Origin: an uncultured Leptospiraceae bacterium
GTDB taxonomy: Bacteria > Spirochaetota > UBA4802 > UB4802
Direction: 5' to 3'
NCBI GenBank assembly: GCA_964486725.1
Contig: CAZAOK010000001.1
Location: 49,213 to 113,212, forward strand
Length of the DNA: 64,000 nucleotides
Shown: in pieces, positions 17,955 through 40,311 of the stretch
How the letters are laid out: every line of letters starts with the position of its first letter
Position numbering within the stretch: the stretch's first letter is position 1
Notes under the pieces: generated by a model
What the model saw: the letters and a program-made list of their open reading frames with translations, nothing else
What the model was told of the DNA's origin: nothing
Databases searched by the model: none
Made by a program: the position numbers and the translations under genes

Positions 17955-18659
17955 ATGAAGAAAACACGATTTATTCCTTCAATTCTCCTGGCTGGGTATC
18001 TATGCCTGCCCGTATATGCTATGCCTGGATTGAAGGTGGTGGCAAACTTCTCTACGTCAGTGAACGACCAGACCCCGGAAGTGAAAAAAAATATTGCGAT
18101 AGCCTGTGACAGGCTTGATGGTTTTGTGCTGGAACCGGGATCAGTGCTCTCTTTTAATGGAATCGTTGGTGAAGGCTCAGCGGCGAATGGGTTTGCAAAT
18201 GGTAATGTATTATACCAGGATGAGGTTGTTATAGAGCCGGGTGGAGGATTGTGCCAGGTTTCATCAACACTTTTTAATGCCATGCTTATGGCAGGTTGTG
18301 CCATCGTGGAACGTCACAGGCATTATCAGCCGGTTACCTATGTACCCCTGGGCCTGGATGCAGCAATTAAGTATGGAAAGAAGGACCTGCGCATCAGAAA
18401 TCCTCATGACCAGCCGCTATATATCAGCGCAGTAATGAATAACAGCAGCCTGGCAATTAGCATACGGGCCGCCAATTCCCTGAAATATACATACGAGCTT
18501 GTAACAGAAGAAGAGGATGTATCACTCCCACTTGATTCAGATGATGCGATACGACCGGGTGTGTCAGTATACGTGTATAGAAACAAGATGGAAAAGGGTA
18601 AAATTATTGAGTCATTTCTCATGTACAAGGATTATTATCCGCCGGTTAGATTGCGATGA
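17955..18659 (+). CDS. VanW family protein
   Basis: Signal peptide plus VanW core GGGLCQVSSTLFNAMLMAGCAIVERHRHYQPVTYVPLGLDAAIKYGKKDLRIRNP. Confidence 0.8.
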   Translation: MKKTRFIPSILLAGYLCLPVYAMPGLKVVANFSTSVNDQTPEVKKNIAIACDRLDGFVLEPGSVLSFNGIVGEGSAANGFANGNVLYQDEVVIEPGGGLCQVSSTLFNAMLMAGCAIVERHRHYQPVTYVPLGLDAAIKYGKKDLRIRNPHDQPLYISAVMNNSSLAISIRAANSLKYTYELVTEEEDVSLPLDSDDAIRPGVSVYVYRNKMEKGKIIESFLMYKDYYPPVRLR

Positions 18660-19285
18660 CGCGACCGGTGGCACAGGTTTTGATTGTTGTTTCGTTAATG
18701 TTAGTGACCATTGTTGTGGTATGCCCCCCGGTGGCGTCTCATCCAGGTGATGACCTGGAAAGCTGGAGTACAATCAGGGGGTCAACTGAAGAGAAATGTT
18801 TGTTTCACTGGCTCAGGCAAAAGGGGACCGGATACCTGCGGGATCAGGGTGGTAATGAACATTTTTCATGCGCCCTCCCGGAATTTTATGGCAGGTTCGG
18901 GCTTTTTATTACACTGGTATATAATGGCAGGGTCAGGGGCTGTTATGGCGCCTTTCATCATGCAACTGATAACGTTGAAAGTATTCTGGGTGATTATTTA
19001 AAAGGGGCATTGACACGGGACAACAGGCACAGGCCGCTGGAGGCCCATGAGTTTGAAAAGAGCAGTATTATACTGACAGTGGCATCAGGTCTGTACCCGG
19101 TTGTCTCACTTGAAACTCTTGATATAAGCCGTTTCGGTATAAAGGCTCATTGCGGGGATGGCAGCATTCTTGTCATTGTCCCCTCCGAAATTAAAAGCAT
19201 AGAGTATTTGAAAAAGATACTTTCGCCATACGATGTTGTGCAGCTGTTCGCGTTCAGGTGTGTTACCCTCAGGGGAGAACCGTAA
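18656..19285 (+). CDS. AMMECR1-like domain protein with N-terminal signal/anchor
   Basis: ATGA start/stop overlap with the VanW gene. Hydrophobic N-terminus VLIVVSLMLVTIVVVCPPVA. AMMECR1-like core FGLFITLVYNGRVRGCYGAF, then RHRPLEAHEFEKSSIILTV. Confidence 0.6.
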   Translation: MTRPVAQVLIVVSLMLVTIVVVCPPVASHPGDDLESWSTIRGSTEEKCLFHWLRQKGTGYLRDQGGNEHFSCALPEFYGRFGLFITLVYNGRVRGCYGAFHHATDNVESILGDYLKGALTRDNRHRPLEAHEFEKSSIILTVASGLYPVVSLETLDISRFGIKAHCGDGSILVIVPSEIKSIEYLKKILSPYDVVQLFAFRCVTLRGEP

Positions 19286-19316
19286 CGCGCCACCAAACAT
19301 ATGAAGGAGTAAACAG

Positions 19317-22300
19317 ATGAAAAAGGTTATTGTGTGTGTAACTCTTATGCTGCTGGTGATTACGGGGTGTACGACCACCGGGAAAAAGCACATGGAGGAC
19401 GGGACAGTTGTGTATACCGGTGATGGCGATAAAAAACTGCAAAAAGAATACGTGGTGAAAGGCCGGGTGCTGGATGCACAGAGTAAAGACGCGGTTGCAG
19501 GAGCCACGGTGGAGCTGAAGAACGCCCAGATGGGGGTGGGCTACTACCTTGAAAAAACAGATAGCGGCGGTTATTTCAAAATTGAAAACTTTATACCTCA
19601 GGTACGATATATAATTGAAGTTGTAGCAGACGGCTACGTTACATATAAAACTACCGAAAAAGTGGAAACCGGAAAGAGAACTATCTACTTACAGAAAGAA
19701 GGCATTCTCACGGGTGTAGTTCGGGGAGGTGACGGTAAACCGGTACAAGGGGTGCAGGTAAAGCTGCGGCAGGCATCTTCCGGGTATGGACAGGGTAACA
19801 AGCCCTTTATACAGTCAACAGGTGATGATGGCAGTTACAGTTTTAACAAGCTTCCCGCCGGTAGATACATGGCAACCTTCAGTAAGCCGGGTTATATCAC
19901 CGAAACTGCCCGCATCAAGTATATTAAGAATGGTGAAACCTTCACCCTTCCCATGGTAGTATATGAACCGGCATCCATATCGGGGAAAATCGGTATTAAG
20001 CAACTGGATGCCCCAGCAATAAACGTGGACGTTCAGGCGGTTGGACGGGTAACGTATTCTGCCAGCACCTTCCATGATGGAACATATGTGCTTGAAGACC
20101 TGAAACCAGGTAATTACAAGCTGCGAGTTCATCACCGGGGATTTGATACAATGGAAACCTCTTCCTTCAAGATAACAGAAGGTGAGAGAAAGAAGGAATT
20201 TAATTACGAGGTAACCCCGAAAGATCCTGCATTAAGCGTGTACTCATACAGGTATACTTTTGTGCCGGGTAATAAACTTTCGTTTAACCTGCGTACATTT
20301 CGTCTTGAATCGGTAAAGGTGCGGGTATACCAGGTTCCCCTGAATACATTTTTACAGGGGCACGTTGACCCGGATACTATTGACCCGGGGAAAGAAAAAT
20401 TCAAGGTGTTCACAGAATGGAGTGAACCCATACACAATTTCAAACCATACGAATGGCGCTACCAGTCACTGGAATTGAAAGACCAGCTTCCAACCGGGGG
20501 CTATTGCATTGAAGTTGAAGGTGCAGGTAAAATGATCAGCCGGAAGTTCTTCTCTGTTACCTCGGTGGGGGTGGTGGCGAAGCGATCGCAATATTCAATG
20601 TTTACCTATGTGACCCATCTTGCTGAAAACAAACCCATCAAGGGTGCATCGGTGGTGGTATTTGACTCAACCCCCGAGAAGAAGCAGTACAGGTATTCTA
20701 CACATCCATACAAGCCGCCCAAACGGATAGAAGACCTGCCTGTAAAGATATTAAAGAAAGGGAAGACTGACAGCAATGGTGTGTTTACCTACAGGATGAA
20801 ATCCAGGAAGCATTATACTGTGCTGGTTATAGGAGAAGACGGCAGCTACGCCCTGTGCAGCACCGGGTCGCCATCGGCCTTCGACCGTGAGAAGAACAAG
20901 TACTTCATCTATACTGACAGGCCGGTATACAGGGCGGGTGACACGGTGTTTTACAAGGTGGTTGGCAAGGAAAGAAAGCGTAGATTTATGCCGCTTGACG
21001 GGCAGAAGCTGCATTACAGGATAATCAACAGGGATTTTAACAGTACGGTGGATGAGGGTCAGCTCACCCTTGACCAGTGGGGAACCTTTCACGGCAAGAT
21101 AGCCATGGCAGCAGATGCACGGCTTGGTGAATATGATATACGGGTTGGTCCCTCGAAGAAAAACCTGTATGCCGCCGGGCGTTATTACATGGAGCAATAC
21201 CGAAAACCGGAATTTAAAATAGACATCACCCCTTCAAAACCCTACTTCACCAACGGTGATACCGTTGAATTTAAGGTTGAGACGAAATACTTTTTCGGTG
21301 CCCCGCTGAAGAACGGGCTGGTGCGGTATCGTTTTTATGAAACCAGGATGCGTGATACCGATACCACCTACTGGTGGGAAGAGGATTATCCGTCACGTGA
21401 ATCATACAACCGTATACGCCTGGAAGGTGAGAAATATCTCAACGATGAAGGGGTTGCCGTATTGCGCTTTGACAGTGGCAACTACCCCTATGATCGTAAG
21501 ATCACCCTTGAGGCAACCGTGATGGACAAGTCTAATATCAGCATCACTTCGAGCAACTCGGTAAAGGTTGGCCGGGGGGAATATTATATTAAGATAAACC
21601 CTGATCAGAATTTTTACGCGGATAATGAAAAAAAGAAAATCGAGATCCAGACCCTGTCCCATACGGGTGACCCCATTCGTGCAGGGGTAAACCTGGATCT
21701 TTACCGTTACGTGTGGAAACCCCTGCAGCGTGTGTATGTACATGAAAAGCGACCGCTGTTTTCAAAAAAGATCACTACTGACAAAAAAGGCCGGGCAACG
21801 GTAGAACTACCCCGAAAGTTTTCATACTACGGCGAGTTTGACCTGGTTGCCGAAAGCACCGACCGTTATAATAACAGGATCAACGCCAACAGGATCATCT
21901 GGGTATACAGTAAGCAGGGTGGAGAGATAAAGTCAAAATTGAAGAACCTTGAACTTACGGTGGACAAGACAAGCCTTAAAGAACCCGGCAGGATCACCTG
22001 CCTGGTGAAAAGCAGGTTCACCGATTCATACGTGTGCCTCACACTTGAGGGGCGTGACGTGTACCACTCCAGGGTGGTGAAAATGAAAGGGAATATTACA
22101 CCGGTGACATTTGAGGTGAAACCTGAATACGCACCGAACTTCTATCTTACCGCAACCATGCAGAGAAAACGTGCACTGTATACCAGCAGGGTTGATATTG
22201 AACTTCCGGTTGCGGAAACCGGTCTTTCCATCGAAATGAAAAATGACAAAAAGGTATATAAACCCGGAGAAAAGGCAACGGTACATATCAAGGTAACAGA

Positions 22301-24677
22301 CAAAAACGGGAACCCTCTTAAGGCCGACCTGTCCCTTGCCGCAGTAGACGAGGCAATATACCAGATACGGCCCGATCATACGCCGAAAATGCAGGATTTC
22401 TTCTATACAAAGATATCCAACTGGGTGTTGACAAGCTACTCCTATCCCATACACATCCTTGCCGGAGCCGCTAAAGAGGGAAAGGTGAAGATCAGGGAGA
22501 AGTTTGAAGATACAGCTTTCTGGAAGGGAAAGATACGAACCGACGATGCAGGCAGGGCTTCGGTCACCTTCACATTACCAGACAACCTTACCGTCTGGAG
22601 GCTTACCGCCAGGGGACATGATCGGCAGGGACGTGTGGGTGAACATAAATCGGAATTCCAGGTAACACAAGACCTGATCGCCCGTATAGGGCGCCCGCGG
22701 TTTGCCGTTGAAGGGGATACCATGGGTATCATTGGTATTGTTAACAGTAATACCAAACGGGGATTGAAAGAAGTAAAAACCACCATGCAGATCAACGGGA
22801 AAAAGGTTGTGGCCGATAACCCGGTGAAGATCAGCCTGCCGGGATTCGGTTCTTCCAGGGAATATTATACAACCACTATTCCGGAGGATAAGAAAAAGCT
22901 AACCATGGAATATACCGCGATAGCGGACCCGTCAGCCAGCGACGCGCTGCGCCTGCATGTACCTGTACAGCGGCGTGGGGTGAACTACAAGCTCTATGGA
23001 ACGGGAGACATGGCAAATAACAGCAAGATTGTTATACAGCCGTTGAAAGACAGCACTGATTTTGATTTCATTCCAGAGTCTGTTACCATACAGGTGAATC
23101 CCTCACCGGTAATACAGATGCTCAGGGCCACTGAATATCTCATGAAATATCCCTATGGCTGCATTGAGCAGACCATAAACAGGTTTCTGCCGGCAATGGC
23201 AGTGTACAGGCTTGCCGAGAGGCAGGGATACGGGGCATTGCTTTCAGGGAAATCCACAAAGGAACTGCATGCCAAGGTTGATTCGGGGATATCACGGCTG
23301 CAGCAACTGCAGAACAGTGACGGTTCGTGGGGGTGGTGGTACGGCGACCGGGGTAACGGCTTTGTAACCGGTTACATTCTGAGTGGTTTTATGCTGGCAC
23401 AGAAGAACGGGTATGCGATCAGTAAGAATACAATCGATAAGGGTGTAGCAGCCGTTGCCAGGATGCTGAAATACCGGCAGGTGTCACATGACGCGATGGC
23501 CTACCTGCTGTACGTGTATGCCCTTCATGGAAAATGGGACCAAAAGGCCTACGAGTATTGCACAGACAAGCTCGCGATGAACCCCTACCAGCTGGCATAC
23601 ATGGTGCGTGCCCTGGCAAAGGCTGATGGCATAAAAGAACTGAAAAGTGAAAGAAAACAGAAGCTCAGAAAAGATTTAAAGAAGTTCCTGGCCGCGTTAA
23701 AAGAAAAACAGGAACTTGACGGACGGGGGATCTACTGGCCCAGCGTGGGATCCCAGCAATGGGGATGGCCGGGAGGACGTGCTGAGATTACTGCACACGT
23801 GCTCTCAGCTCTCGTTGAAACGGGTGACACTACTTCACTGGTGTCAAGGGCGGTGCGTTCGTTGACCAAAAGAGGGAAGGGCGGCGCATGGAACTCTACC
23901 AAGGAAACCGCCACGGTCATATTTGCCCTGGGTGACTATATTGACAGTATCGGTGCCGCACCGAAAACCAGCGGAAAGGTAGCCTTCACACTTGACGGAA
24001 AGCATCTGACCGAGTATGCCTATGATCTCAGCGGCAACGTTGATATGAAGGATTTCACAAAAACATTACCCCTTGAGGGGGAACGAAGGGTTCCTGCCTT
24101 TACAGTGGAAGCCGCGGGGGATACCGGCAGGGATCTCAGTTACGAGGTGGTGATCAACGGCACCCTGAAATTCAAAGATGCCGGTGTGCTGTCACTCTTT
24201 AAATCTGAAACACGAAGCGTGAATGCCCTGTCCAATGGAATACAGATAGCCCGTTCATTCTCATACGTAACCAGGGTGAAGGACATTCATCATAACGAGT
24301 ACCTTGTTCCACAGAATATCGATGATAAGAGAGAATTGAAAATAGGTGATGAACTGCTGGTGAAGGTACGGTTCGTGGCCAGTGATGATTTTGAATACCT
24401 GGTACTTGAAGATTACCTGCCGGCGGGGTTCGAGGTGGTGAATGAAAACGCCTACGACGGCTATCAGCCATACGTGAACGCCGAACGCTGGGATAACAGG
24501 ATGGTGTTTTTCTTCAACAGCATTCAGAAGGGGAAATACTTCGAGATCGCCTATATTATCCGGGCAGAACTGCCGGGCACCTTCAGTGTGAAACCATCCA
24601 GGATGGAGTGCATGTATGAACCAACTATACAGGGATGGGCGCCGCCGGGTTCCATCGAAATTGATAAGAAGGAATAA
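19317..24677 (+). CDS. Alpha-2-macroglobulin family lipoprotein with intact thioester motif
   Basis: Lipobox LLVITGC. Three CarboxypepD_reg-like N-terminal modules, then long MG-domain-like repeats. Thioester CIEQ in YPYGCIEQTINRFLP (nt 23160-23171). AGGAG lies 8 nt upstream of the ATG. Confidence 0.93.
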   Translation: MKKVIVCVTLMLLVITGCTTTGKKHMEDGTVVYTGDGDKKLQKEYVVKGRVLDAQSKDAVAGATVELKNAQMGVGYYLEKTDSGGYFKIENFIPQVRYIIEVVADGYVTYKTTEKVETGKRTIYLQKEGILTGVVRGGDGKPVQGVQVKLRQASSGYGQGNKPFIQSTGDDGSYSFNKLPAGRYMATFSKPGYITETARIKYIKNGETFTLPMVVYEPASISGKIGIKQLDAPAINVDVQAVGRVTYSASTFHDGTYVLEDLKPGNYKLRVHHRGFDTMETSSFKITEGERKKEFNYEVTPKDPALSVYSYRYTFVPGNKLSFNLRTFRLESVKVRVYQVPLNTFLQGHVDPDTIDPGKEKFKVFTEWSEPIHNFKPYEWRYQSLELKDQLPTGGYCIEVEGAGKMISRKFFSVTSVGVVAKRSQYSMFTYVTHLAENKPIKGASVVVFDSTPEKKQYRYSTHPYKPPKRIEDLPVKILKKGKTDSNGVFTYRMKSRKHYTVLVIGEDGSYALCSTGSPSAFDREKNKYFIYTDRPVYRAGDTVFYKVVGKERKRRFMPLDGQKLHYRIINRDFNSTVDEGQLTLDQWGTFHGKIAMAADARLGEYDIRVGPSKKNLYAAGRYYMEQYRKPEFKIDITPSKPYFTNGDTVEFKVETKYFFGAPLKNGLVRYRFYETRMRDTDTTYWWEEDYPSRESYNRIRLEGEKYLNDEGVAVLRFDSGNYPYDRKITLEATVMDKSNISITSSNSVKVGRGEYYIKINPDQNFYADNEKKKIEIQTLSHTGDPIRAGVNLDLYRYVWKPLQRVYVHEKRPLFSKKITTDKKGRATVELPRKFSYYGEFDLVAESTDRYNNRINANRIIWVYSKQGGEIKSKLKNLELTVDKTSLKEPGRITCLVKSRFTDSYVCLTLEGRDVYHSRVVKMKGNITPVTFEVKPEYAPNFYLTATMQRKRALYTSRVDIELPVAETGLSIEMKNDKKVYKPGEKATVHIKVTDKNGNPLKADLSLAAVDEAIYQIRPDHTPKMQDFFYTKISNWVLTSYSYPIHILAGAAKEGKVKIREKFEDTAFWKGKIRTDDAGRASVTFTLPDNLTVWRLTARGHDRQGRVGEHKSEFQVTQDLIARIGRPRFAVEGDTMGIIGIVNSNTKRGLKEVKTTMQINGKKVVADNPVKISLPGFGSSREYYTTTIPEDKKKLTMEYTAIADPSASDALRLHVPVQRRGVNYKLYGTGDMANNSKIVIQPLKDSTDFDFIPESVTIQVNPSPVIQMLRATEYLMKYPYGCIEQTINRFLPAMAVYRLAERQGYGALLSGKSTKELHAKVDSGISRLQQLQNSDGSWGWWYGDRGNGFVTGYILSGFMLAQKNGYAISKNTIDKGVAAVARMLKYRQVSHDAMAYLLYVYALHGKWDQKAYEYCTDKLAMNPYQLAYMVRALAKADGIKELKSERKQKLRKDLKKFLAALKEKQELDGRGIYWPSVGSQQWGWPGGRAEITAHVLSALVETGDTTSLVSRAVRSLTKRGKGGAWNSTKETATVIFALGDYIDSIGAAPKTSGKVAFTLDGKHLTEYAYDLSGNVDMKDFTKTLPLEGERRVPAFTVEAAGDTGRDLSYEVVINGTLKFKDAGVLSLFKSETRSVNALSNGIQIARSFSYVTRVKDIHHNEYLVPQNIDDKRELKIGDELLVKVRFVASDDFEYLVLEDYLPAGFEVVNENAYDGYQPYVNAERWDNRMVFFFNSIQKGKYFEIAYIIRAELPGTFSVKPSRMECMYEPTIQGWAPPGSIEIDKKE

Positions 24678-26733
24678 TGCCAGCAGCATTACCCTGCTAC
24701 TTCTTCTGCTGTGTGTTCTTTCGCCGGCAATGCTTTATGCCGGCGAAGAAAGGGTGGGTATACAGGTACTCTCCAAACACTTTCGCCAAATGCGTGAAAA
24801 GGGCGGTGGACAGGTGCTGTGTACCTTCCCGCCGGAGAGCAGGCTGCAGGTGGAGGGGGCAGGCAGCAGCATACCTGTGCAGCGGCTGCAGCTGAGCTTT
24901 CACCGTGGCTGGCATGTGACCATGGATGATGTACCGGTTGGCCTGCCGGTTGAATGTGAGATCGAAGCCCCATCAGGTGAAGAGGCTTTCACCCTGAACC
25001 TGGAAGATATAAAGCGAACCTACCCCCTGCCGTTATACCTGTCCCTTGATAAGAATGAAGAACCTGTTACCGTGGTTTATGAAGACGCAACGCGATATGC
25101 CTCTGACAGTGCCCGTGCCGAATACGGCAACAGGCCGGCCAGGCACCGTGAAGCACTGGCAGCCCTTGCCCACGTGATACTGGCCCGGTGCCGGTACATA
25201 CAGGACAATCACCCCGGACATCCTTACCGGTTCTGCGATCTTACCCACTGCCAGGTCTACAGGGGGAGGACGGGGATGCCATCCCTCCTGCACGAAGATA
25301 GATGGTATATAGATCATCAGAACCTGGCCGGCCCCCTGCTCTTTCATTCACGTTGCGGAGGGCATACCATGGACATGGGGGTGTTCGGCGCCGGGGACAG
25401 GGGTTTTCCGCCGGTTAAGGATATCCTTTACAGAACCGGAATGGTGCTCTGTCATGCGGGTGATAACGGGTGGACACGGATGCTTTCACCGGCACAGGTG
25501 GTTGACATCCTGGATGATGAGAAGCTTTCACGTCCACCCTCTTCTGTTGAATATGATTCGGGGGTGGGGGCTGTTTTGGTGAAAGGGGATTCGGGTGTGC
25601 GCACCCTGGCGCCGGAAACTTTCAGGCTGAAGATTAACCGGGTAATGGGGTGGAACTTTCTCAAGAGTAATAATTACCGGCTGGAGATGGCGGAGAGGGA
25701 TGACGGGCCAGTTCTGCGTTTTGCCGGCAGGGGGCTGGGGCATAACGTCGGCCTGTGCCAGCACGGGGCCCTGGCGTTGGCTGAAATGGGATATTCGCGT
25801 TACGAGATACTGGAGCATTATTATCGGGGGATAACCCTGAATGCGATGGAAGGGGGAAGGGCGGGATCTCCCTACCTGTATTTTTTAACATTTGATACGC
25901 GGAGCGGAGAGGTGACGGGGCAGAGCCATCCGGCAATGCTGGAGCGTGTGGTGCCGCCGGGTTCACTTTGGAAGATCATCATGGGGCTGTATCTTGTTGC
26001 CCATCGGCCCGACCTGGTAGAGGGCTATCATATTACATGCGGAGGTCGGGGGGATGATCAATCCATTCTAAGCGACGGCTGCTGGAAACCGGAAGGGCAC
26101 GGCAGGATGGATCTATTTACGGCACTGTCACATTCGTGCAACATGTATTTTGCTTCACTTGCCGGTGAGATATCGTTTAATGATTTTAACAGGTTTTACA
26201 GTGCGTTGTGTGAAAGGCTTGGGCTCTTGTATTCATTCCCGGCGGTAAAGGGTAACCCTGAATGGTCAAGGCGATGCGCCGGGCTTGATTTCCAGGTGAG
26301 CATGCGTATGGGTGACCTGGTGAAGGTGGCCATGCTGGTGAGTAATGCCAGCAGCGAAAACGAACAGGTTAACCGGCTGAAACAGGAGATCAGCCCCGGA
26401 GGGCTTGCCATGCTGCGGCGGGCCCTTGCGGAAACCTTTACCATGGGAACGGCAGCGCCGCCGGTGCATACCGCGGGGCCAAAGTGCAACTGGGAGATTC
26501 CTGTCAGGTTGACCAGTGATATGCGAGAGCTGCCTGTTGATGAAGGCCTGTGGGGGAAGACCTCCACTGTCATCGACGGCACCAACCTTCCACTTGGATA
26601 CGGCATGTTTCTGGGGGGAAAGGATGAGAGTGGGATACTGGTGATCCTTCGAAAGGGCAACGGCCACCTTGCGGCGCAGTGGGGGCGGTTGATCCTTGCT
26701 GACAGGCTGGGGGAGTGTTTTTTTCACCGCTAA
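24616..26733 (+). CDS. SpoIID/LytB-like domain fused to a penicillin-binding transpeptidase-like domain
   Basis: SpoIID motifs RFCDLTHCQVYRG (25231-25266), FHSRCGGHT and GLGHNVGLCQHGALALAEMGYSRYEILEHYY. PBP motifs SLWK (25963-25974), SCN (26134-26142) and KTS (26557-26565). GGAG lies 7 nt before ATG 24616. Overlaps the A2M gene by 62 nt. Confidence 0.8.
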   Translation: MNQLYRDGRRRVPSKLIRRNNASSITLLLLLLCVLSPAMLYAGEERVGIQVLSKHFRQMREKGGGQVLCTFPPESRLQVEGAGSSIPVQRLQLSFHRGWHVTMDDVPVGLPVECEIEAPSGEEAFTLNLEDIKRTYPLPLYLSLDKNEEPVTVVYEDATRYASDSARAEYGNRPARHREALAALAHVILARCRYIQDNHPGHPYRFCDLTHCQVYRGRTGMPSLLHEDRWYIDHQNLAGPLLFHSRCGGHTMDMGVFGAGDRGFPPVKDILYRTGMVLCHAGDNGWTRMLSPAQVVDILDDEKLSRPPSSVEYDSGVGAVLVKGDSGVRTLAPETFRLKINRVMGWNFLKSNNYRLEMAERDDGPVLRFAGRGLGHNVGLCQHGALALAEMGYSRYEILEHYYRGITLNAMEGGRAGSPYLYFLTFDTRSGEVTGQSHPAMLERVVPPGSLWKIIMGLYLVAHRPDLVEGYHITCGGRGDDQSILSDGCWKPEGHGRMDLFTALSHSCNMYFASLAGEISFNDFNRFYSALCERLGLLYSFPAVKGNPEWSRRCAGLDFQVSMRMGDLVKVAMLVSNASSENEQVNRLKQEISPGGLAMLRRALAETFTMGTAAPPVHTAGPKCNWEIPVRLTSDMRELPVDEGLWGKTSTVIDGTNLPLGYGMFLGGKDESGILVILRKGNGHLAAQWGRLILADRLGECFFHR

Positions 26734-26840: not shown

Positions 26841-29756
26841 ATGAAAAAGTATCTGTGTAGTATATTCTTCCTTATAATGATATATATACCCTGCAGTGGG
26901 TTTGGTGCCTTCATGTTCCATCCGGAACTTGACTGGAAGTCTATTAAAACAGAGCATTTCTGGATCCATTATCACCAGGGGCTTGAAGAGCACGCACGTC
27001 GTCTCGTGCCAGTTGCTGAAGATCTGCACACCCGCCTGGTTCGGGCCACGGGGTGGGAACCTTTCTGGCGAACCGACGTGGTGCTGGTGGACAATACCGA
27101 CATGCCCAACGGGTTTACCATTCCGGTTCCCTATAACCGGGTGCAATTATATATTGTTCGTCCTGGGCCTGACAGTTCACTTGGTGATTATGATGACTGG
27201 GTAAAGCTGGTGTTTACCCACGAGTATAGTCACGTGTTCAACCTGGATGTAATTGACGGCATTCCACAGATGAGCCGCTATACGCTGGGACGGGTATGTT
27301 TTCCCAATATGTTTCTGCCCATGTGGAACCTCGAGGGGTATCCCGTATACCGGGAGTCTATGAAATATCCCTATGGTCGGGTGCACAGTGCTTACACCCA
27401 CATGGTGATGCGTACCGAGGTTGATGAGAATTCGCTGAAGTCCATCAACCTGGCCTCCTACTTTCCCAGGGAGTGGCCCTCGGGAATGGTGCCCTATCTT
27501 TACGGGGGGCTTTTCGTGGAGTACCTGCAGCAGACACAGGGCCACAGCAGGTTTGAAGATGTGTTCACCGAGAACGCCGACAACATACTTCCATGGCTCA
27601 TACAGAAAAACGGCCGTGACGTGTACGGCAGATCCTTTTATGCCCTGTGGGACCAGTGGCAGAATGAGGCCGTAAAGCGATATCGCCGGGAGGCGGCACA
27701 GATACGAGAGAAGGGACTCACCGATGCGCGGTTGCTGACCCATAGCGGGTATCACACTTCCATTCCGCGTTTCAGCACCGACGGCAAGGTGCTTTACTAC
27801 GTTCGCATGACCGGTTACAACATGCCCGCGTTGATGCGTGTTTCCCTGCGTGATGGTACCACGAAAAAAATTGCCAGGGTACGCATGCCATCGGGGATGT
27901 CGGTGAATGACACCCACGGTATTCTCATGTCCGACCTTGAATATTACCGTACCTTCTCAATCTACAATGATATTTTCAGATATCAGGATGGATACAGGCA
28001 GCAAACCCGTGGTATGCGGGCCCAATCGGTTGATGCCTTTCCCGATGGAAAAATAGCCTGCATACAGGTAAAGGATGACCGCTACAACCTGCTGATTCTT
28101 GATGAAAGGTATAACAGTCAGAACGTTCTTATAAATAAAAGCCGGATGCAGCTTTCCGGTGTCAGGGTTTCTCCGGGCGGCAAAAACCTGGTATTTACGG
28201 CAAGGGGGGAGGACGGGTTCGCCCACATTTATCATTATGGTGTTGACAATGGCAAAATTCAAAAGCTTACCTCCGGGCGCTACAGCTGCATGCATCCAGA
28301 CTGGTATCCCGGTGGCGGGGCTATTGTATTCGTCTCGGATCGCGACGGTGTATTTAACCTCTATAGTCTTGAACTGAAATCGCGGCAGCTGAAAAAATTG
28401 ACAAACATGATGGGAGGGGCCTTCTGGCCTGATATATCACCTGACGGCAGCAGTATTGCTGCAGCCGTGTACGGGAAAGAAGGATTTGACATCGGGCTGA
28501 TAGAGCATCCCGAAGATCCGCCGGTAATCGAAAAAGTACAGGTCACTTACGCCGAAGAACTCTTTGCGGATGCTCCCCCAATTGATGGAGAAAAGGAAAC
28601 GGGGAAAGAAGCCGGGGGATATAATCCCCTGTACTCACTTGTAAACCCCGCATGGCTGCCGGTGCTCTATTCAGAGGAGATCTACCCCGAAGAATATGAC
28701 AGCTGGTACGGTTTTTACACCATGGGAGCAGATACCCTCTACCGTCATTTTTATTCCGTATATGCTGCCGCCTCGGTTCGCCAGAAGCGGGCTGATGTAT
28801 CGCTGCAGTATACCTACGCGGGGCTTTACCCGGATATCACTATTGCCTTCAGCGACAACTCAATTTTTTACGGCACCGATCCCTTTCCGTGGGAAGATGA
28901 TCACAGCGTAACGTTGAAACGTGAACTTGAACGTACTATCGAAGGGGGAATATCGATACCATTTATGAAATTTTACAATCAGCACCTGCTGAGCCTCTCT
29001 TACAGCCGCGAGGTGAAATGGACGGATATCTATTACAGCGGCATGGGGGTTTTCGAGTTCGAAGACGTACTTGCAGGTTTTCACGGGGGATATTCATTCA
29101 GCAGCACCTCTATGTACGCTTACTCGGTAAGCCCGGAGGACGGGGTAGAGTTCATGATAATCGGTGACTGGTATACCAACAGGGTCGGATCGGACATAAA
29201 TTACGGCAAGGTACGGGGTGAACTTGCATGGTACCTTTCGGGTATATGGCGCAACAACGTCATCATGCTGCGGGGACGGGGAGGGGCATCATTCAACAAC
29301 CCGGATTACCTTGATCCCTATAATATCGGCCGTTACGAGAAGGGAAATACCGGAGCTGCCCAAACGGGTGAAGACCGTTTCGGTATGAGGGGGTACGGGG
29401 CTGATATGTTTTACGGCAACAGGCTGGCAGTGGGAGCGCTTGAATACCGGTTGCCCCTTTTGCAGAAAGACCTGGGATATGGGACGTTGCCGGTGATGCT
29501 CAGGGATATATGGCTGGTTCCTTTCGTGGAATATGGAAATGTATGGAAAGACCACACCGGTCTTGCGGATTTCAGAACGTCGGTGGGAGGTGAGCTGCAC
29601 ATGCGCCTCACCATGGGATATGGATATGACATCAGCGGTTTCGCGGGTGTGGCCCACGGTTTCGATGAGTACGGGGAGACGCAGGTCTACTTCGGCGTTG
29701 CCGGCATGTACGAGGGGGCTGGAGGGAATAATAAACCGTATGGGCTCATGCGATAG
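26841..29756 (+). CDS. HExxH metallopeptidase-like / PD40 (TolB-like) propeller / Omp85-like C-terminal barrel protein
   Basis: Signal peptide. HEYSH at 27219-27233. PD40-like repeats (VSPGGKNLVFTARGEDG, YPGGGAIVFVSDRDGVFNLY, PDISPDGSSIAAAVYG). C-terminus FGMRGYGADMFYGNRLAVGALEYRLPL...VPFVEYGNVW resembles the bacterial surface antigen barrel. Confidence 0.7.
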   Translation: MKKYLCSIFFLIMIYIPCSGFGAFMFHPELDWKSIKTEHFWIHYHQGLEEHARRLVPVAEDLHTRLVRATGWEPFWRTDVVLVDNTDMPNGFTIPVPYNRVQLYIVRPGPDSSLGDYDDWVKLVFTHEYSHVFNLDVIDGIPQMSRYTLGRVCFPNMFLPMWNLEGYPVYRESMKYPYGRVHSAYTHMVMRTEVDENSLKSINLASYFPREWPSGMVPYLYGGLFVEYLQQTQGHSRFEDVFTENADNILPWLIQKNGRDVYGRSFYALWDQWQNEAVKRYRREAAQIREKGLTDARLLTHSGYHTSIPRFSTDGKVLYYVRMTGYNMPALMRVSLRDGTTKKIARVRMPSGMSVNDTHGILMSDLEYYRTFSIYNDIFRYQDGYRQQTRGMRAQSVDAFPDGKIACIQVKDDRYNLLILDERYNSQNVLINKSRMQLSGVRVSPGGKNLVFTARGEDGFAHIYHYGVDNGKIQKLTSGRYSCMHPDWYPGGGAIVFVSDRDGVFNLYSLELKSRQLKKLTNMMGGAFWPDISPDGSSIAAAVYGKEGFDIGLIEHPEDPPVIEKVQVTYAEELFADAPPIDGEKETGKEAGGYNPLYSLVNPAWLPVLYSEEIYPEEYDSWYGFYTMGADTLYRHFYSVYAAASVRQKRADVSLQYTYAGLYPDITIAFSDNSIFYGTDPFPWEDDHSVTLKRELERTIEGGISIPFMKFYNQHLLSLSYSREVKWTDIYYSGMGVFEFEDVLAGFHGGYSFSSTSMYAYSVSPEDGVEFMIIGDWYTNRVGSDINYGKVRGELAWYLSGIWRNNVIMLRGRGGASFNNPDYLDPYNIGRYEKGNTGAAQTGEDRFGMRGYGADMFYGNRLAVGALEYRLPLLQKDLGYGTLPVMLRDIWLVPFVEYGNVWKDHTGLADFRTSVGGELHMRLTMGYGYDISGFAGVAHGFDEYGETQVYFGVAGMYEGAGGNNKPYGLMR

Positions 29757-31674: not shown

Positions 31675-33495
31675 ATGAAACGGGCGTTATTATGTGCAGT
31701 GATGTTTCTTGCCGTTTTCAGCTTTATGCAGAACCATAATGGGCATACCCAGTCAAAATATACCATCGCGGTACTGGATTTTAAGGACGTTACCGGCGAT
31801 TCTGCGCTTACCTACCTGAGCGTGGCGGTACCCGAGCTGATCGCCACCAACCTTGCCCAGAGCGGCAAAATGGTGGTGCTTGAGCGTGAGCGGGTGAAAA
31901 AGATACTGGAAGAGAGGGGACTTGCCGCCGCGGGGGTGACCGAGGGGGACGCCAACGAAATAGGGAAACTGCTTGCGGCAAAGCAGCTTCTCACAGGTTC
32001 AGTTGTCAGGGCAGGCGATAATATACGAATAGATGTACGGTTAACTGATGTCAGTACCGGAAAGATCATGTCAGCCGACAAGCAGCGAAGCCCTGATGTT
32101 GACGGTGTCATTGACGCGGTGGATATTATTTCCGGAAGGATGGTGAAATCATTGACCGGAAGTTACGTTGATTTTTCCGGTGACGTGGAACCTGTCAGGC
32201 CCGTAACGGATAGCGGGGTGGTAACGCTGGAGCTGCAGACGCAGAACAGGTATATCAGCAAAAACAACAGTGGAAATTTTTACGTGCGGACAGGTTTTCT
32301 CGCGGGGAAAGCTGAACGTCCTGAAAAAAGACTGCCGCTGAATATATCGGTGGTGCTTGATCGAAGCGGCTCCATGTCGGACAGCGGGAAACTGGATTAC
32401 GCCAGGAACGCCCTGAAGTTTCTTGTGCGCAACCTGGAATCCACTGATATGCTGTCCATCGTAACCTATGATGACGTTGTTGACGTGGCACTTGAGCCGG
32501 AAGTTGTGTCAGATAAGAATAAAATATACAAAATTATTGATGCCATAGAGCCGGGAGGTGGAACCAACCTGAGCGGCGGTATGTTGGAAGGCTGCAACCA
32601 GGTAAAGAAAAAATTCAAAAGCGGCCAGGTGAACAGGGTCTTGCTTATATCCGACGGGCTGGCCAACGTGGGAGTAACTGATCCCCGCCAGATACAGAAG
32701 CTTGCCAGGCAGAGATCCGCTGAGGGAATTACCATATCAACATTCGGCGTTGGGCAATACTTCAACGAGAAGTTGATGACCGGTATCGCCGAATATGGCA
32801 GCGCTTTTTATTACTATATTGACAGGGCGGATAAGATTCCCGAAATATTTTCCAATGAACTGGAGGGGCTTTTAACAGTGGTGGCACAGAATTGCAGCAT
32901 TGAGATACGCCCAGAACATGGTACACGGGTTGAAGAGGTATACGGTTACGCGGCAAGTGATGCAGCTGATGGAGTTGTTATTAAAATGGGAGATATGATC
33001 TCAGAAGAAAAAAAACTAGCCCTGCTTGCGCTTGTACCTTCCAGGCAGTCAATCAGCAGGGGTGTACTTGCGACGGTGGTATATACCTATGATGAAACGG
33101 TAAAGGGTGAAGGCAGGATAAGCTCAAGTAAAAAGGTGACAGTTACACCTACATCTGACAATAAACTGGTGACCCTGAATATCAATCCACTGGTAATGAA
33201 GGACGTCAAGATGTTCGTCTCCTCTTCAATGATGGAAGAAACAATGGACCTGGTTGATAAGGGCCGGGTTGACGACGCAAAGGCGAAAATCCGGGAAAAC
33301 CTGGACGTGGTTCGTGATGGACTTTCACGGTATACCTCACGTGAGATGAAGCAACAGGTGATGAATATTGTAGAATACCAGTCACGGCTGGAAAAGGCTT
33401 CAGAGGAACATGAACTGAACGCGGCCTCGGAGTCTTACCAGATGATGCAGAAGGATTCACGAAGTAAGCAGTATAACCTGCGTAAGAGGAAATAA
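31675..33495 (+). CDS. von Willebrand factor type A domain protein with CsgG/LpoB-like N-terminal module
   Basis: Signal peptide. N-terminal YTIAVLDFKDVTGDS...LLTGSVVRAGDNIRIDVRLTDVSTGKI. vWA MIDAS VVLDRSGSMSDSG and GGTNLSGGM. Confidence 0.8.
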   Translation: MKRALLCAVMFLAVFSFMQNHNGHTQSKYTIAVLDFKDVTGDSALTYLSVAVPELIATNLAQSGKMVVLERERVKKILEERGLAAAGVTEGDANEIGKLLAAKQLLTGSVVRAGDNIRIDVRLTDVSTGKIMSADKQRSPDVDGVIDAVDIISGRMVKSLTGSYVDFSGDVEPVRPVTDSGVVTLELQTQNRYISKNNSGNFYVRTGFLAGKAERPEKRLPLNISVVLDRSGSMSDSGKLDYARNALKFLVRNLESTDMLSIVTYDDVVDVALEPEVVSDKNKIYKIIDAIEPGGGTNLSGGMLEGCNQVKKKFKSGQVNRVLLISDGLANVGVTDPRQIQKLARQRSAEGITISTFGVGQYFNEKLMTGIAEYGSAFYYYIDRADKIPEIFSNELEGLLTVVAQNCSIEIRPEHGTRVEEVYGYAASDAADGVVIKMGDMISEEKKLALLALVPSRQSISRGVLATVVYTYDETVKGEGRISSSKKVTVTPTSDNKLVTLNINPLVMKDVKMFVSSSMMEETMDLVDKGRVDDAKAKIRENLDVVRDGLSRYTSREMKQQVMNIVEYQSRLEKASEEHELNAASESYQMMQKDSRSKQYNLRKRK

Positions 33496-33693: not shown

Positions 33694-36600
33694 ATGATAC
33701 GTGTGAAGGAACTACGTGTAATTATTCTTGCCTGTATATTGTTTTTTGCTGGTTGTTCAAATGATAATGAGTATGCATTCCAGCAAAATGATCCCGATCC
33801 CTCGGTGCGGCTCTTTGAGGTGCTGGATGAAACCCCTGCGTTGAAATCATTGTTCACCGGTCTTGATCAGCATGAATTTAATGTGAAACTTTCCCGCCTG
33901 ATGAATGAAGACCCTCGACTCTTTGCAGAATTAATGCGCCGAATGGCGGAAATGTTTTACGGATACAATGCCCCTTTCCCGCAGGCTGTATCTGACATGT
34001 CTGACAGTTTCAGCGTGTTCCATGATGTGTACTGTGTTCAGCCGGATGCACTTGATCGCACAGTGGAAATGGTGAAAAACATACTGAGTGTTGATTCAAA
34101 TGTAATGATGGAGGGTGCTGATTCCATAAATGACATCCTGATAGCCCTGAGAAACCTCGAACAGGATGAACATGGTGTATTCTACAGTCCCCACCCGTGG
34201 AATCTTTTTGGTGTGAACCAGGAACTGGCTGATATCGGCTACGATGGTGTGGATAACCTCATAGAGAACATCGGTGTGGTACATGACATGTATAATGGGG
34301 CCGCGAACCTGAGCGAACCCGATGTTCTTCTCAGGGAATTTGTTGATTCCCTGCTTCAGGGTGATGTTGACATAGAAACCAGGGTTGCTGATATGATTGA
34401 CAGCCTTAAAAACACTGATGACGTGTCGCTAACCGAACGCGAGGTGGCTGACTGGATGGTGGCTAATCCAATGAAGTCATCGATTACTCAATACATGATG
34501 TCTGACCTGTACCCCATGCTCAAAGATCCTGATCTTGTGAACGTGAATGGTGAATCCAACGTTATTATTCGGGGTAAACAGCTTCTTGATGAAGAAGCCA
34601 GGATTCTGTCAGCCACCCCCAACAGTCTTTCAGGCGGAATAGCGGGAAACAACATCCTGATGACGAAATGGCTTATGCAGGGGATCTATAATGACATGCG
34701 GAAATATGACAATCTTGAACAGGTGGAAATATTCGATGTTGAGAATAATGACATGCTCAAATGGGCAGACACCATGGTTCACAATTTTAATGCCGGTTTA
34801 AAGCTTTCCGGCAGCAGCGATGGTATTTCCAAGAACAGGGTAAAAGATATATTATGGGACGGGTGGATCTTCGATCCTTATGGTAATGGCAGCCGAACCT
34901 TCAACTTTAAAGGTGTACTCTTCATCAATAATAATGATCCTGCTGTACCTGATCAGGCTGATGGGTATGTGGCAAAGATGGCCAAAACACGGAGCCTTGA
35001 CAGTACTCAGAAAACTTTCAGGTTGCAGATCAATGATATACTAAACGGTGACAATGACGGTGATTTTTTTGATGATAATAATGATGTTTTCAAGCTAATC
35101 AATTATTCCTATACAGGTGAAAGTCAGATAGAATCCATCATGACGAACCTTCAGCTGTATCTTCTCTCGTATTATTATTCTCCCGTTTACCGGAAATGGG
35201 CATGGACTCCTGAAGATGGAGATGAATTTTTTGGGGACAACCGGAGAAATATTAAAGACCTGTATGGAGGACTGTCTTCATCCCTCAGAAATCTGGTAGT
35301 GCTGGATAAAAATGGTATGAGCCCTGCCGAGGGAGGGCGTAATATGACCCTGGCTGCGGAACTTGTGTACGTGCTTGCCGCGGGATACGGGATAACCGAC
35401 CCTGTTAACGCTCCAGGGGAACTGAGCCTTGAAAACTGCCTGCGTTCAATGGGATCCCCCCTGGCAACAAGTGACTCGATTAGTGTTGATACGGGGCTTT
35501 TTACCATACACATGAACGTTCTGGGCAACAACAGGATATATAGAAAGCCATCTAACCAGGCGGGCTATGTGTCATTCACCACCCAGAGTGCAATGCCGGC
35601 AATGGAGATTTTACAGCCAGGGATGTTTCGATACAGAACTGGTGGCAGGGGCAGTGAAAATGTTGGAGGGTGGCAGGGAAAATTTTCACCTTCACAGGGG
35701 GATATCAGGGGTATTGTGAACGATAATGGACATATCGTTACCAGTAACTGGACCCTTACCGAGATTGCCCTTTCTTGCTGGGAGGGCTATGGTCCATTTA
35801 CCTTCAAGGGACGTGCTCCCAACGGTTCAGATTGCAAATACAGAAACCACTGGACCTCAGACTGGTATTACATAAGTGGAAGATATAAGGGTAACAAGGG
35901 CCCGGGGTTTGCCCGACATGGTTTTACAGAAGGGCGGTATAGAATATATGAATCCATCATGCAGCCTGAACCAGGGCAGGCCGGGTTTGTGAATTCCGGT
36001 TATTATGATTCAACGGGAAACCCCATGCCCAGGTATGGATACATGCGGGAAAACGCTGAAGACGGGAGTTACGTGGATGTAGAAACCTCCGTAGATAACA
36101 GGCTGCTTCTGGACTGTAAAAGCAGGGAAGAGGCTATCCGCAAAAATTTCCAATGGCTGATGAACCAGAAAAAGTATCAATTTTTGATACCTATTCAGAG
36201 TGATTACAATATGCTGTGGGGTAGTGTGAAAATAGAGATTTACGCTTTCACCACAATAAACGCAAACGGGATAGTGGGTGTCACAAAAGCCAGGCGATAT
36301 AATTCAAATCTCCAGAATAATGCCCGGTGGGGTGAAAGCGGAATACAGAGCAATTATTATCAGCATTACGAGGGAGAGAGCAACTATTTTGTAAATACCA
36401 TAAACGAAGGGAAAAATACATGCAGGTTTTCCGGTGTTTCATTTGATGACTCAGATTACATGATGGCCCTCGATTATAAATACTATATAGACGGCTGGTT
36501 GAGCGGTATCGCCAAGGCAATGGTGGATATGACTGATGAAATATGGGGCTGTCTTGGTGATAATCCAGTATTACCTCCCTCGGTTGGTGAAAATTTTAAT

Positions 36601-39343: not shown

Positions 39344-39371
39344 TTGCAAGTGTATCCTGCTTCGGTATAGT
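39344..39371 (+). promoter_or_regulatory. Sigma70-type promoter candidate for the DUF115-flbD-motAB operon
   Basis: TTGCAA (39344-39349), a 16-nt spacer, then TATAGT (39366-39371), 20 nt upstream of ATG 39391. Confidence 0.45.
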
Positions 39372-39390
39372 GTACCAGCTGAGAATTAAA

Positions 39391-40311
39391 ATGCTGGAGA
39401 TGGTGTTGGTTAACGCTGGAACATTATACGATAATATTAACAGCGCCCTTGTCGGTGAGCGGCTGGGCGCCATACAGAGAAATATCACCCGTAATCTTCC
39501 CTCTATCCGAAAGTGGGGAGGACTTGGGCCGGTAGTGCAACGCTTTTCCGGGAAACATGTTATAGTATGCGGCGCGGGTCCTTCCCTTGAAAACAGCATG
39601 AATGAGTTGAAAAAGTATTATCAGCGGAAAGAACTGGTGATACTTGCCGTGGATATGGCCTTAAAGCCATTATTGAAAGCGGGAATAACCCCATCCTTTG
39701 TAATATCCTGTGAATCTACGCCGGTTCCCTTCTTTTACGGTGTTTCCACCGAAAGGATGCATCTTTTGGCATTCAGCGGTATGTCAAATATTAATGTCCG
39801 CCAGTGGAAAGGGCGTATGAGTTTTTACAACTGGCTGCTGCGCAGGGAGCCCTTCAATGAATTGTGGAAACAGGCAGGTGAAGAGCTTGGATACGTTGCT
39901 ACCGCAAGTATTGTAACCACCCAGGCGGTGTCCCTGGTGCTTGGATGTAATATACGATCATTGATTCTTGCGGGTAATGATCTGGCATTCGATACACGGT
40001 ACTATACGGCTGGAAGTATGGCGATGGAGCAGGCAGCTTTGCGTCAGTGCCGCACAATCCCGGCTGAAACAGACGAGTATATGCGCATACTTCGCAAACG
40101 TCATTATAGGATTAACAGGCGCGATATGCAATGGTATACCGATCATCAGTTTTTGGCAGCAAAGGAATGGCTGGACGAATTGTTCCGTAAAGTTAATGTG
40201 CCGGTATATGATTGCAGTTTGCCCGGCTGCAGTGAAAAATATGTTCATAAGACAACAATAAAGGAAATAATCAGGGAATTACTTCCTTCAAGAAAAAAAA
40301 GGAGAACATAA
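39391..40311 (+). CDS. DUF115 / MptE-like (motility accessory factor-like) protein
   Basis: VIVCGAGPSLENSMNELKKY...LAVDMALKPLLKAGITPSFVISCES fits the Maf/DUF115 core. GTG 39370 lies inside the predicted -10, so ATG 39391 is preferred. Confidence 0.7.
   Translation: MLEMVLVNAGTLYDNINSALVGERLGAIQRNITRNLPSIRKWGGLGPVVQRFSGKHVIVCGAGPSLENSMNELKKYYQRKELVILAVDMALKPLLKAGITPSFVISCESTPVPFFYGVSTERMHLLAFSGMSNINVRQWKGRMSFYNWLLRREPFNELWKQAGEELGYVATASIVTTQAVSLVLGCNIRSLILAGNDLAFDTRYYTAGSMAMEQAALRQCRTIPAETDEYMRILRKRHYRINRRDMQWYTDHQFLAAKEWLDELFRKVNVPVYDCSLPGCSEKYVHKTTIKEIIRELLPSRKKRRT

Follow-up and report, generated by a model that had tools for sequence, protein, structure and literature searches.

A SpoIID/LytB-transpeptidase fusion protein, predicted to act on peptidoglycan, is linked to thioester alpha-2-macroglobulins in an uncultured Leptospiraceae bacterium and its relatives

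A secreted SpoIID/LytB-transpeptidase fusion is encoded behind an alpha-2-macroglobulin gene

In a stretch of 64,000 nucleotides from an uncultured Leptospiraceae bacterium (contig CAZAOK010000001.1; hereafter the window), we found that the gene directly behind a thioester alpha-2-macroglobulin (A2M) encodes a single 705-amino-acid protein, in which a SpoIID/LytB domain is followed by a penicillin-binding protein (PBP) transpeptidase domain. This fusion protein is probably a periplasmic two-domain peptidoglycan enzyme, which would cooperate with the A2M in an envelope damage-control cassette. New here is the intact, order-swapped member of an A2M-linked pairing of transpeptidase and SpoIID domains, whereas the domain combination itself is known, in the reverse order, from YfaQ of Escherichia coli.

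The 705-aa open reading frame (ORF) had been singled out in an initial annotation for its motifs, and every quoted string is present in the translation: RFCDLTHCQVYRG at residues 205-217, FHSRCGGHT at 243-251, GLGHNVGLCQHGALALAEMGYSRYEILEHYY at 373-403, SLWK at 450-453, SCN at 507-509 and KTS at 648-650. The overlap with the 3' end of the A2M gene was also as described, the A2M ORF ending 62 nt inside the fusion gene, and the GGAG attributed to the fusion lies just ahead of its start codon (Table 1). That the protein is secreted, as had been proposed, agrees with a signal peptide visible in the sequence. The N-terminus is kept in orthologues of 84% and 68% identity, and hydrophobic N-termini are present across the whole family. 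Because the leader is conserved in the orthologues and hydrophobic family-wide, we took the first ATG as the true start and the product as exported. In an AlphaFold2 model the leader forms a helix (residues 22-40), preceded by residues with a low predicted local distance difference test score (pLDDT). A lipoprotein anchor was considered and rejected, as the lone Cys sits within the hydrophobic core and the 68%-identical orthologue has not kept it; judged from the sequence, the signal peptide is more likely of type I.

Family profiles and a structural model identify both domains

A homologue search of databases returned about 100 full-length proteins of 620-730 aa, of which 52 were aligned (alignment A1). 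Except for the two close orthologues, these 52 proteins are 33-40% identical to the window protein, and members of the family are already present in public databases under generic names. The window protein alone stays below the curated thresholds: it scored 18.3 bits with PF00905 (Pfam gathering score 22.1), 16.5 bits with PF08486 (cut-off 23) and 59.9 bits with TIGR02669 (cut-off 83.3), the last match covering residues 363-409 only, at the C-terminal end of the SpoIID domain (47 residues). At the level of the family, PF00905 was detected in 52/52 A1 members at E<=0.1 (best 2.9e-11), with precomputed PF00905 matches on many homologues, and PF08486 in 42/52 at the same threshold (best 5e-6). 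Besides these two families, the Pfam scan of the 52 members gave just two weak matches, each in a single member. Searched with hmmsearch, the A1 profile matched Clostridioides difficile PBP3 (7rd0, E 2e-14) and, among the Zn2+-binding class B PBPs, also 7rcz (E 1.7e-9), as well as the SpoIID structures 5i1t, 5txu and 4rwr (E 1.5e-11 to 1.6e-9 over ~235 positions), the match to 5i1t (E 1.5e-11) spanning profile positions 167-400. For both predicted domains, the family-level profile evidence is far beyond chance.

The AlphaFold2 model, built on A1, reached a mean pLDDT of 89.3 and a predicted template modelling score (pTM) of 0.90. Foldseek searches of the PDB with this model retrieved, each with probability 1.00, SpoIID structures (5i1t_A, TM 0.60; 4rwr_B, TM 0.63 on target) and the PBP/beta-lactamase fold (4ztk, TM 0.66; OXA-427, 0.63; 6hzi, 0.55). 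Profile searches and structure prediction, the check suggested in the initial annotation, therefore left both assignments standing: a SpoIID-like N-terminal half and a C-terminal half with a PBP/beta-lactamase fold.

The N-terminal half corresponds to an entire SpoIID/LytB protein

The alignment with stand-alone SpoIID/LytB proteins runs from a VxIxILS strand to HYYP, and residues 46-157 match the N-terminal beta region of ordinary SpoIID/LytB proteins of ~390 aa. As residues 46-157 align with this beta region, the N-terminal half represents a whole SpoIID/LytB protein and no fragment. Glu169 occupies the VVxxE[ML] column, which we take to be the seat of the SpoIID catalytic Glu. The SpoIID/LytB signature set that had been ascribed to this half is thus accompanied by an invariant Glu column and by the fold: C207, D208, H211 (or C), C212, G373, G375, H376, G379 and G384 vary little or not at all among the 52 proteins, and both signature motifs, D-x-x-H-C-Q-x-Y and G-x-G-H-G-x-G-x-x-Q-x-G-A, are present.

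With SpoIID of Bacillus and Clostridioides (PDB 4rwr, 5i1t), the fusion has in common the fold, the Glu of the catalytic column and the motifs (C)D-x-x-H-C-Q-x-Y and G-x-G-H-G-V-G-x-x-Q-x-G-A. However, SpoIID is a membrane-anchored single-domain sporulation protein, which belongs to the DMP engulfment machinery with SpoIIP and SpoIIM as partners. In contrast, the SpoIID domain of the fusion belongs to a non-sporulating diderm lineage and shares its chain with a transpeptidase, and its gene is linked to that of an A2M.

The C-terminal half resembles zinc-site class B transpeptidases

The transpeptidase domain of ~285 aa begins, in the model, right behind the SpoIID domain at about residue 418. 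Its SxxK, SxN and KTG-like motifs occur in the order that had been noted from the sequence, and all are invariant save for the third KTG position. S450xxK453 opens a helix (449-463) in the model, and K648-T-S-T651 lies on a strand (645-654). Neither the PF03717 pedestal (PBP dimer) domain nor, at E<=0.1, a GT51/transglycosylase family gave a match in any of the 52 members.

Zn2+-binding PBPs carry a tetrad in which two Asp/Cys positions are combined with a His that does not vary and with the SxN Cys (Sacco et al. 2022, PMC9334274). The fusion has such a tetrad in C475, C489, H495 and C508, which align with the C..C..GHG..SCN of C. difficile PBP3 7rd0 and make up a putative metal site. From these features, the C-terminal half can be described as a predicted minimal, zinc-site, class-B-like acyl-serine transferase. 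Zn2+ class B PBPs (C. difficile PBP3, SpoVD and PBP2; PMC9334274) are its best solved sequence relatives and have in common with it the tetrad [C/D]-[C/D]-H-Cys(SxN); unlike them, the fusion is without an N-terminal pedestal, a transmembrane anchor and a nearby SEDS partner gene. A beta-lactamase or BlaR-type sensor, raised by the OXA-427 fold match, was rejected: the Asn of SxN is invariant, the Zn tetrad is of the class B type, PBP2, PBP3 and SpoVD are the best matches in sequence, and there is no sensor membrane domain. The conservation of catalytic residues among proteins of 33-40% identity argues that both domains are enzymes rather than relics.

The fusion recurs in independent assemblies of two lineages

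Scanning one genome for each GTDB species yielded 73 loci, gathered by similarity to the fusion. These loci were searched via six-frame ORFs with the window neighbour proteins and our own domain hidden Markov models (HMMs); adjacency was counted on stop-to-stop ORFs, and taxon labels are the record titles of the metagenome-assembled genomes (MAGs). An uninterrupted SpoIID-then-transpeptidase ORF was present in 55/73 loci. All 55 are from independent assemblies, comprising Spirochaetota MAGs (labelled Leptospirales/Leptospiraceae) and Smithellaceae/Syntrophaceae. Among them are single contigs of megabase scale and, from Smithellaceae, a chromosome of 5.2 Mb. Among 1.84 billion cluster representatives searched, ~47 full-length representatives at 50% identity were found, followed by a sharp drop in score. 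An assembly chimera or gene-calling artefact that joined a SpoIID gene and a PBP gene is therefore rejected: we regard it as vanishingly improbable, given the same ORF and domain order in 55 loci of independent studies, the ~47 cluster representatives, and a model that packs both domains together with a pTM of 0.90.

In a neighbour-joining tree (no bootstrap), the Smithellaceae/Syntrophaceae sequences formed one clade within the spirochaete diversity. This nesting suggests that the cassette described below has moved horizontally between phyla. Four Smithellaceae/Syntrophaceae loci (L022-L024 and L037) carry the entire cassette with its gene order unchanged.

The fusion is the last gene of a VanW-AMMECR1-A2M cassette

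A search for the same fusion beside A2M genes in other genomes had been suggested in the initial annotation. For 44 fusion loci, the sequence reaches 6 kb or more upstream; in 39 of these informative loci, the gene immediately preceding the fusion on its strand is an A2M gene, and the two genes frequently overlap. The thioester signature CxEQ was present in every linked A2M ORF, the exception being a 468-aa fragment at a contig end (L072). The window A2M is ~24% identical to E. coli YfhM over the thioester region. Where at least 7.5 kb of upstream sequence was available (43 loci), 27 loci showed the order VanW-AMMECR1-A2M and 11 AMMECR1-A2M, while five had none of the three genes. Loci L032 (2851-3837) and L044 (2976-3971) have a GAF-GGDEF gene directly upstream of AMMECR1-A2M-fusion, in the place of VanW; GAF-GGDEF diguanylate cyclase genes also occur in the window, at 7807-9696 (+).

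VanW domains were shown in 2024 to make up another L,D-transpeptidase family, the second one, in which the triad is Cys/His/Asp, and these enzymes require tetrapeptide donors (PMC11348318). In 31 cassette VanW proteins, C100 (within GGGxCQ), H123 and D135 were near-invariant, and the window VanW protein is a predicted L,D-transpeptidase. The AMMECR1-like protein, encoded in 38/43 loci, has a conserved RGCxG and starts with a hydrophobic segment, either a signal or an anchor. Members of the AMMECR1 family usually reside in the cytoplasm, and such a leader is unusual for them.

In the window, the VanW and AMMECR1 genes overlap by 4 nt, a gap of 31 nt separates AMMECR1 from A2M, and the last 62 nt of A2M are shared with the fusion gene. 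A simple scan of the + strand from 17955 to 26733 listed no strong terminator-like site (GC-rich stem plus T-run). The overlaps, the short gap and the lack of such a site are consistent with one operon, and the fusion and A2M are probably translationally coupled. The order of a CxEQ A2M with a lipoprotein signal followed by a PBP-type enzyme is that of type I bacterial A2M operons, with the difference that the partner is not PBP1c.

The transpeptidase is not derived from PBP1c and occurs with SpoIID in three arrangements

The slot behind a thioester A2M is the one that pbpC occupies after yfhM in E. coli, as the initial annotation had pointed out, and this adjacency was confirmed. Its further proposal, that the fusion is a PBP1c in which the glycan-polymerising module has been replaced, did not hold. 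In hhalign, the A1 family matched E. coli PbpC with a probability of only 7.8%. An HMM of the window-family transpeptidase domain scored 62-103 bits with A2M-linked transpeptidases, compared with 18 bits for E. coli YfaQ, 12.7 for PBP2 and 0.2 for PBP1c, and gave no match to E. coli FtsI. Because both scores to PbpC are low, we rejected a PBP1c with a swapped N-terminal module. The two systems are alike in that a thioester, lipoprotein-type A2M (YfhM, or ECAM, in E. coli) is followed by a penicillin-binding enzyme that joins a glycan-active domain to a transpeptidase. They differ in that the glycan domain of PBP1c is a GT51 polymerase and that of the fusion a SpoIID-type cleaving domain; moreover, the membrane anchor and the C-terminal domain of PBP1c are missing from the fusion, and by the scores above the two transpeptidase domains are not specifically related.

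Relatives of both domains were instead found behind A2M genes in other configurations. In a split type, a gene for a transpeptidase of ~300 aa and then a separate SpoIID gene follow a CxEQ A2M (WOR-3, Myxococcales, 'Deltaproteobacteria', Pseudomonadota and unclassified MAGs). Two of these split-type loci (L059 and L071) also have VanW and AMMECR1; between their VanW and transpeptidase genes, they encode a multi-pass membrane protein of ~350 aa (L059:3358-4410 and L071:8805-9851; 38% identity, no Pfam family), which is absent from the window cassette. The cultured myxobacteria Archangium and Cystobacter have a fusion of opposite order, Transpeptidase (E 8e-27) and then SpoIID (E 1e-23), downstream of a CxEQ A2M. 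All A2M-linked transpeptidases carry GSxxK, SCN and KTG[TS]. In the hhalign comparison of A1 with the Archangium protein only the SpoIID segment was reported (99.9%), and the transpeptidase segment was confirmed with Pfam and our own HMM. The split and the Archangium/Cystobacter types thus have the same two domain lineages as the fusion and the same link to A2M, and differ from it in using separate genes or the opposite order. By sequence, the fusion is one of three arrangements of a distinct A2M-linked pair: split, transpeptidase-SpoIID and SpoIID-transpeptidase.

These rearrangements bear on the idea that the fusion is a housekeeping or morphogenetic wall enzyme, acting in growth, division or the passage of periplasmic structures, whose adjacency to A2M has no functional meaning. 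Five of the 44 informative loci lack an adjacent A2M, and among Gram-negative lineages it is common to find SpoIID/LytB proteins that stand alone and carry these motifs, as such an enzyme would lead one to expect. However, the transpeptidase and SpoIID domains lie beside a CxEQ A2M in three arrangements (Spirochaetota, Desulfobacterota-type Smithellaceae, Myxococcota, WOR-3 and others) and also follow yfaS in E. coli, and chance adjacency would not outlast such rearrangement. We therefore consider a housekeeping role quite improbable.

YfaQ of E. coli is the closest known relative

In E. coli MG1655, yfaQ (b2226, 'tandem DUF2300', COG5445) lies directly 3' of the A2M gene yfaS, a position shared by the window gene. 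YfaQ matched Pfam SpoIID with 27 bits, above threshold, at residues 312-374. An alignment of 27 YfaQ proteins (alignment A2) matched A1 in hhalign with 91.8% probability (E 7e-7) over the SxxK-to-SxN region, and an AlphaFold2 model of YfaQ (pLDDT 81.9) matched beta-lactamases and PBP2 transpeptidase domains (E ~3e-6). YfaQ is secreted, like the fusion, and keeps an invariant GSLWK, three of the Cys positions, KTWS and the Glu of the SpoIID column. On the other hand, it has SCG in place of SCN and is without the CDLTHCQ and GLGHGVGLCQ motifs, its domain order is reversed (transpeptidase, then SpoIID), and it is extended at the C-terminus by a further region, in which HEYLH is invariant. Its partner is a thioester-less type II A2M in the six-gene mag/yfa operon, whereas the fusion belongs to a VanW-AMMECR1 cassette. 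By these features, YfaQ is a degenerate member of the A2M-linked pair. PF10062 (DUF2300) had no match in the 52 fusion-family members; for this reason, and because of the reversed order, we rejected membership of the fusion in the DUF2300/YfaQ family and kept YfaQ as its closest known relative.

The HEYLH of YfaQ (H520-E-Y-L-H524; HExxH-like) lies in the second DUF2300 region (alignment A2; L074:3149-4798, - strand) and suggests a metallopeptidase-like module. A similar motif, FHEIFHWAL, is present in the C-terminal extension of a SpoIID ORF (L067:8670-10211) from a WOR-3 MAG.

The architecture had seemed undescribed when the initial annotation was made. This is true only in part: a 2025 preprint divides YfaQ into two parts, transpeptidase-like at the N-terminus and SpoIID-like at the C-terminus, and reports that a yfaQ deletion strain has wider cells and groups with peptidoglycan-remodelling mutants (10.1101/2025.02.11.637708). 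A2M is not mentioned in that preprint (10.1101/2025.02.11.637708). Literature searches for SpoIID with A2M and transpeptidase, and for VanW with AMMECR1 and macroglobulin, returned nothing relevant, and no prior account that links the intact version to A2M, or that unites the arrangements, was found in the literature searched.

From its position after magD and from the known operons, we take MagE of Pseudomonas aeruginosa (PA4488) to be the counterpart of YfaQ and, by reported orthology, a further degenerate member of the pair. The Pseudomonas mag-operon papers give MagE (COG5445) as a protein of unknown function; they also report altered forms of MagD, the A2M, on blots once magE is deleted, and suggest a chaperone role. 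By extension, the fusion could be a mainly non-catalytic partner of A2M, that is, a scaffold, a chaperone or a peptidoglycan anchor. The altered MagD forms would fit such a role, as would the persistence of relatives such as YfaQ, which is without CDLTHCQ, GLGHGVG and the Asn of SxN, despite incomplete catalytic sets. We nonetheless consider it unlikely, as no stable MagE-MagD complex was found and as every catalytic residue of both fusion domains is invariant at 33-40% identity, which is hard to explain without catalysis.

A model of trapping, excision and re-crosslinking

We propose a model in which the fusion would be co-transcribed with A2M as the last gene of the cassette and exported by the Sec pathway to the periplasm. 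There, A2M would capture proteases that reach this compartment, an activity established for A2Ms of the YfhM type, and the SpoIID domain of the fusion would cut glycan, thereby excising damaged or denuded strands. The SpoIID enzymes characterised so far act on glycan from which the peptides have already been removed; by analogy, the fusion may prefer denuded strands, which would suit the clearing of an amidase-damaged wall. The PBP-like domain would make, re-form or trim D,D peptide bonds and so re-stitch neighbouring stem peptides, while VanW would add 3-3 cross-links from the tetrapeptide donors of the mature wall, so that new precursor would not be needed.

The role of the PBP-like domain is the point at which another scheme has to be weighed. 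A transpeptidase without a glycosyltransferase partner may find no pentapeptide donors in a mature wall, in which case a role as carboxypeptidase or endopeptidase would be more plausible. The domain could be a D,D-carboxypeptidase/endopeptidase that trims pentapeptides to tetrapeptide donors for VanW, with SpoIID opening the glycan. The need of VanW L,D-transpeptidases for tetrapeptide donors is in line with this scheme, and so are the small module of ~285 aa, which has no pedestal, anchor or glycosyltransferase partner in the cassette, and a third KTG position that is S, A or G and not a fixed G. However, the best relatives of the domain are class-B transpeptidases (PBP2, PBP3 and SpoVD) and not carboxypeptidases of the PBP4/5/6 type, although sequence alone cannot separate the two activities. 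We treat trimming as a possible alternative, albeit not the favoured one.

Several further observations weigh against an A2M-linked repair enzyme. Five of the 44 informative loci carry the fusion with no A2M within 10 kb, and the enzyme can therefore exist apart from the trap. The model leaves AMMECR1 without a role. In the Pseudomonas mag-operon papers, MagE is reported to fractionate with the cytoplasm and to show no stable MagD binding, and in the literature 'trap and repair' by A2M plus PBP is itself only a hypothesis. Enzymatic activity is a prediction for every member of the family, and the single window protein lies under the curated Pfam and NCBIfam cut-offs. With these points taken into account, we still regard a peptidoglycan enzyme of the A2M cassette as the probable identity of the fusion.

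The proposal that A2M works with a wall-repair enzyme is old and rests mainly on the adjacency of yfhM and pbpC. In several phyla, by contrast, thioester A2Ms are linked to a transpeptidase and SpoIID pair plus VanW, and not to PBP1c. We advance, as a tentative generalisation, that the ancestral and widespread partner of A2M traps may have been a minimal zinc-site transpeptidase with a SpoIID cleaver, which together with VanW and a secreted AMMECR1 might form an autonomous 'trap, excise and re-crosslink' system for wall repair in the periplasm. If this is true, PBP1c would be only the proteobacterial analogue of the pair, and the intact spirochaete fusion would offer a tractable test of the 20-year-old 'defence and repair' hypothesis of A2M and would explain MagE and YfaQ. 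With YfaQ seen as a decayed version of the pair, this pattern unifies the known A2M operon types around the cutting and cross-linking of peptidoglycan. As a single-chain enzyme that appears catalytically intact, the fusion provides clear sites for point mutants (E169, S450 and the Zn tetrad). It also places SpoIID and the zinc-site PBPs SpoVD/PBP3, which are best known from Firmicute sporulation, in a diderm, non-sporulating setting.

Features of the cassette and neighbouring genes of the window

Table 1. Positions in the window of the cassette genes and of the domains and motifs discussed in the text.
Feature	Position	Strand	Basis
VanW-domain protein, 234 aa, first cassette gene	17955..18659	+	Pfam VanW E 6.8e-43; N-terminal signal sequence
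AMMECR1-like protein, 209 aa, overlaps VanW by 4 nt	18656..19285	+	Pfam AMMECR1 E 4.9e-12; N-terminus MTRPVAQVLIVVSLMLVTIVVVCPP
Thioester A2M, 1786 aa, lipoprotein-type signal VITGC	19317..24677	+	Pfam CarboxypepD_reg, MG2, A2M_BRD, A2M, TED, bMG10
Thioester motif CIEQ, A2M residues 1282-1285	23160..23171	+	Sequence
GGAG ribosome-binding site, within A2M coding region	24605..24608	+	Sequence; 7 nt before fusion ATG
SpoIID/LytB-PBP transpeptidase fusion gene, 705 aa	24616..26733	+	ATG start; ORF list, profiles, model
Signal peptide of fusion, ~residues 1-43	24616..24744	+	Basic n-region, hydrophobic ITLLLLLLCVL, then LYA|GEE
Complete SpoIID/LytB domain, residues 46-412, including N-terminal beta region	24751..25851	+	Foldseek, hmmsearch, alignment
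Glu169, SpoIID catalytic-Glu column (assumed)	25120..25122	+	Invariant 52/52; ..VVxxE[ML].. column in MAFFT alignment
Minimal PBP transpeptidase (acyl-serine transferase) domain, residues 418-700	25867..26715	+	7rd0 E 2e-14; Foldseek TM up to 0.66
SxxK motif S450-L-W-K453	25963..25974	+	S450 and K453 invariant 52/52
Putative Zn2+ tetrad C475, C489, H495, C508 (last = x of SxN)	26038..26139	+	Four residues invariant in family
SxN motif S507-C508-N509	26134..26142	+	All three residues invariant 52/52
KTG-type motif K648-T649-S650-T651	26557..26568	+	K, T, T invariant; third position S, A or G

Directly 3' of the fusion, the window encodes a 971-aa protein (26841-29756, +) with TolB-like beta-propeller repeats (PD40/DPPIV_N) and a C-terminal Omp85-family barrel, which is kept at that site only in the two closest relatives (L001 and L002). 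The downstream TolB-like/Omp85, CNNM and CsgG-VWA genes were considered as members of the cassette and rejected, because they are kept after the fusion in these two relatives only. The CsgG-VWA gene (31675-33495, +) joins a CsgG/TolB_N/FlgO-like lipoprotein-type N-terminal domain to a von Willebrand factor A domain. It is followed by a 1875-aa ORF (33694-39321, +) with no Pfam match at E<1e-4 and then by an MptE-like gene (39370-40311). In two loci without the A2M cassette (L045 and L048), an MptE-like gene lies directly 3' of the fusion, and in L045 the two form a single read-through ORF. Further along, the window contains FlhA (FHIPEP) and FapA-type genes (47910-50015 and 53804-55783, +), which show that it is part of the chromosome of a flagellated bacterium, in agreement with the labels of the closest loci as Spirochaetota.

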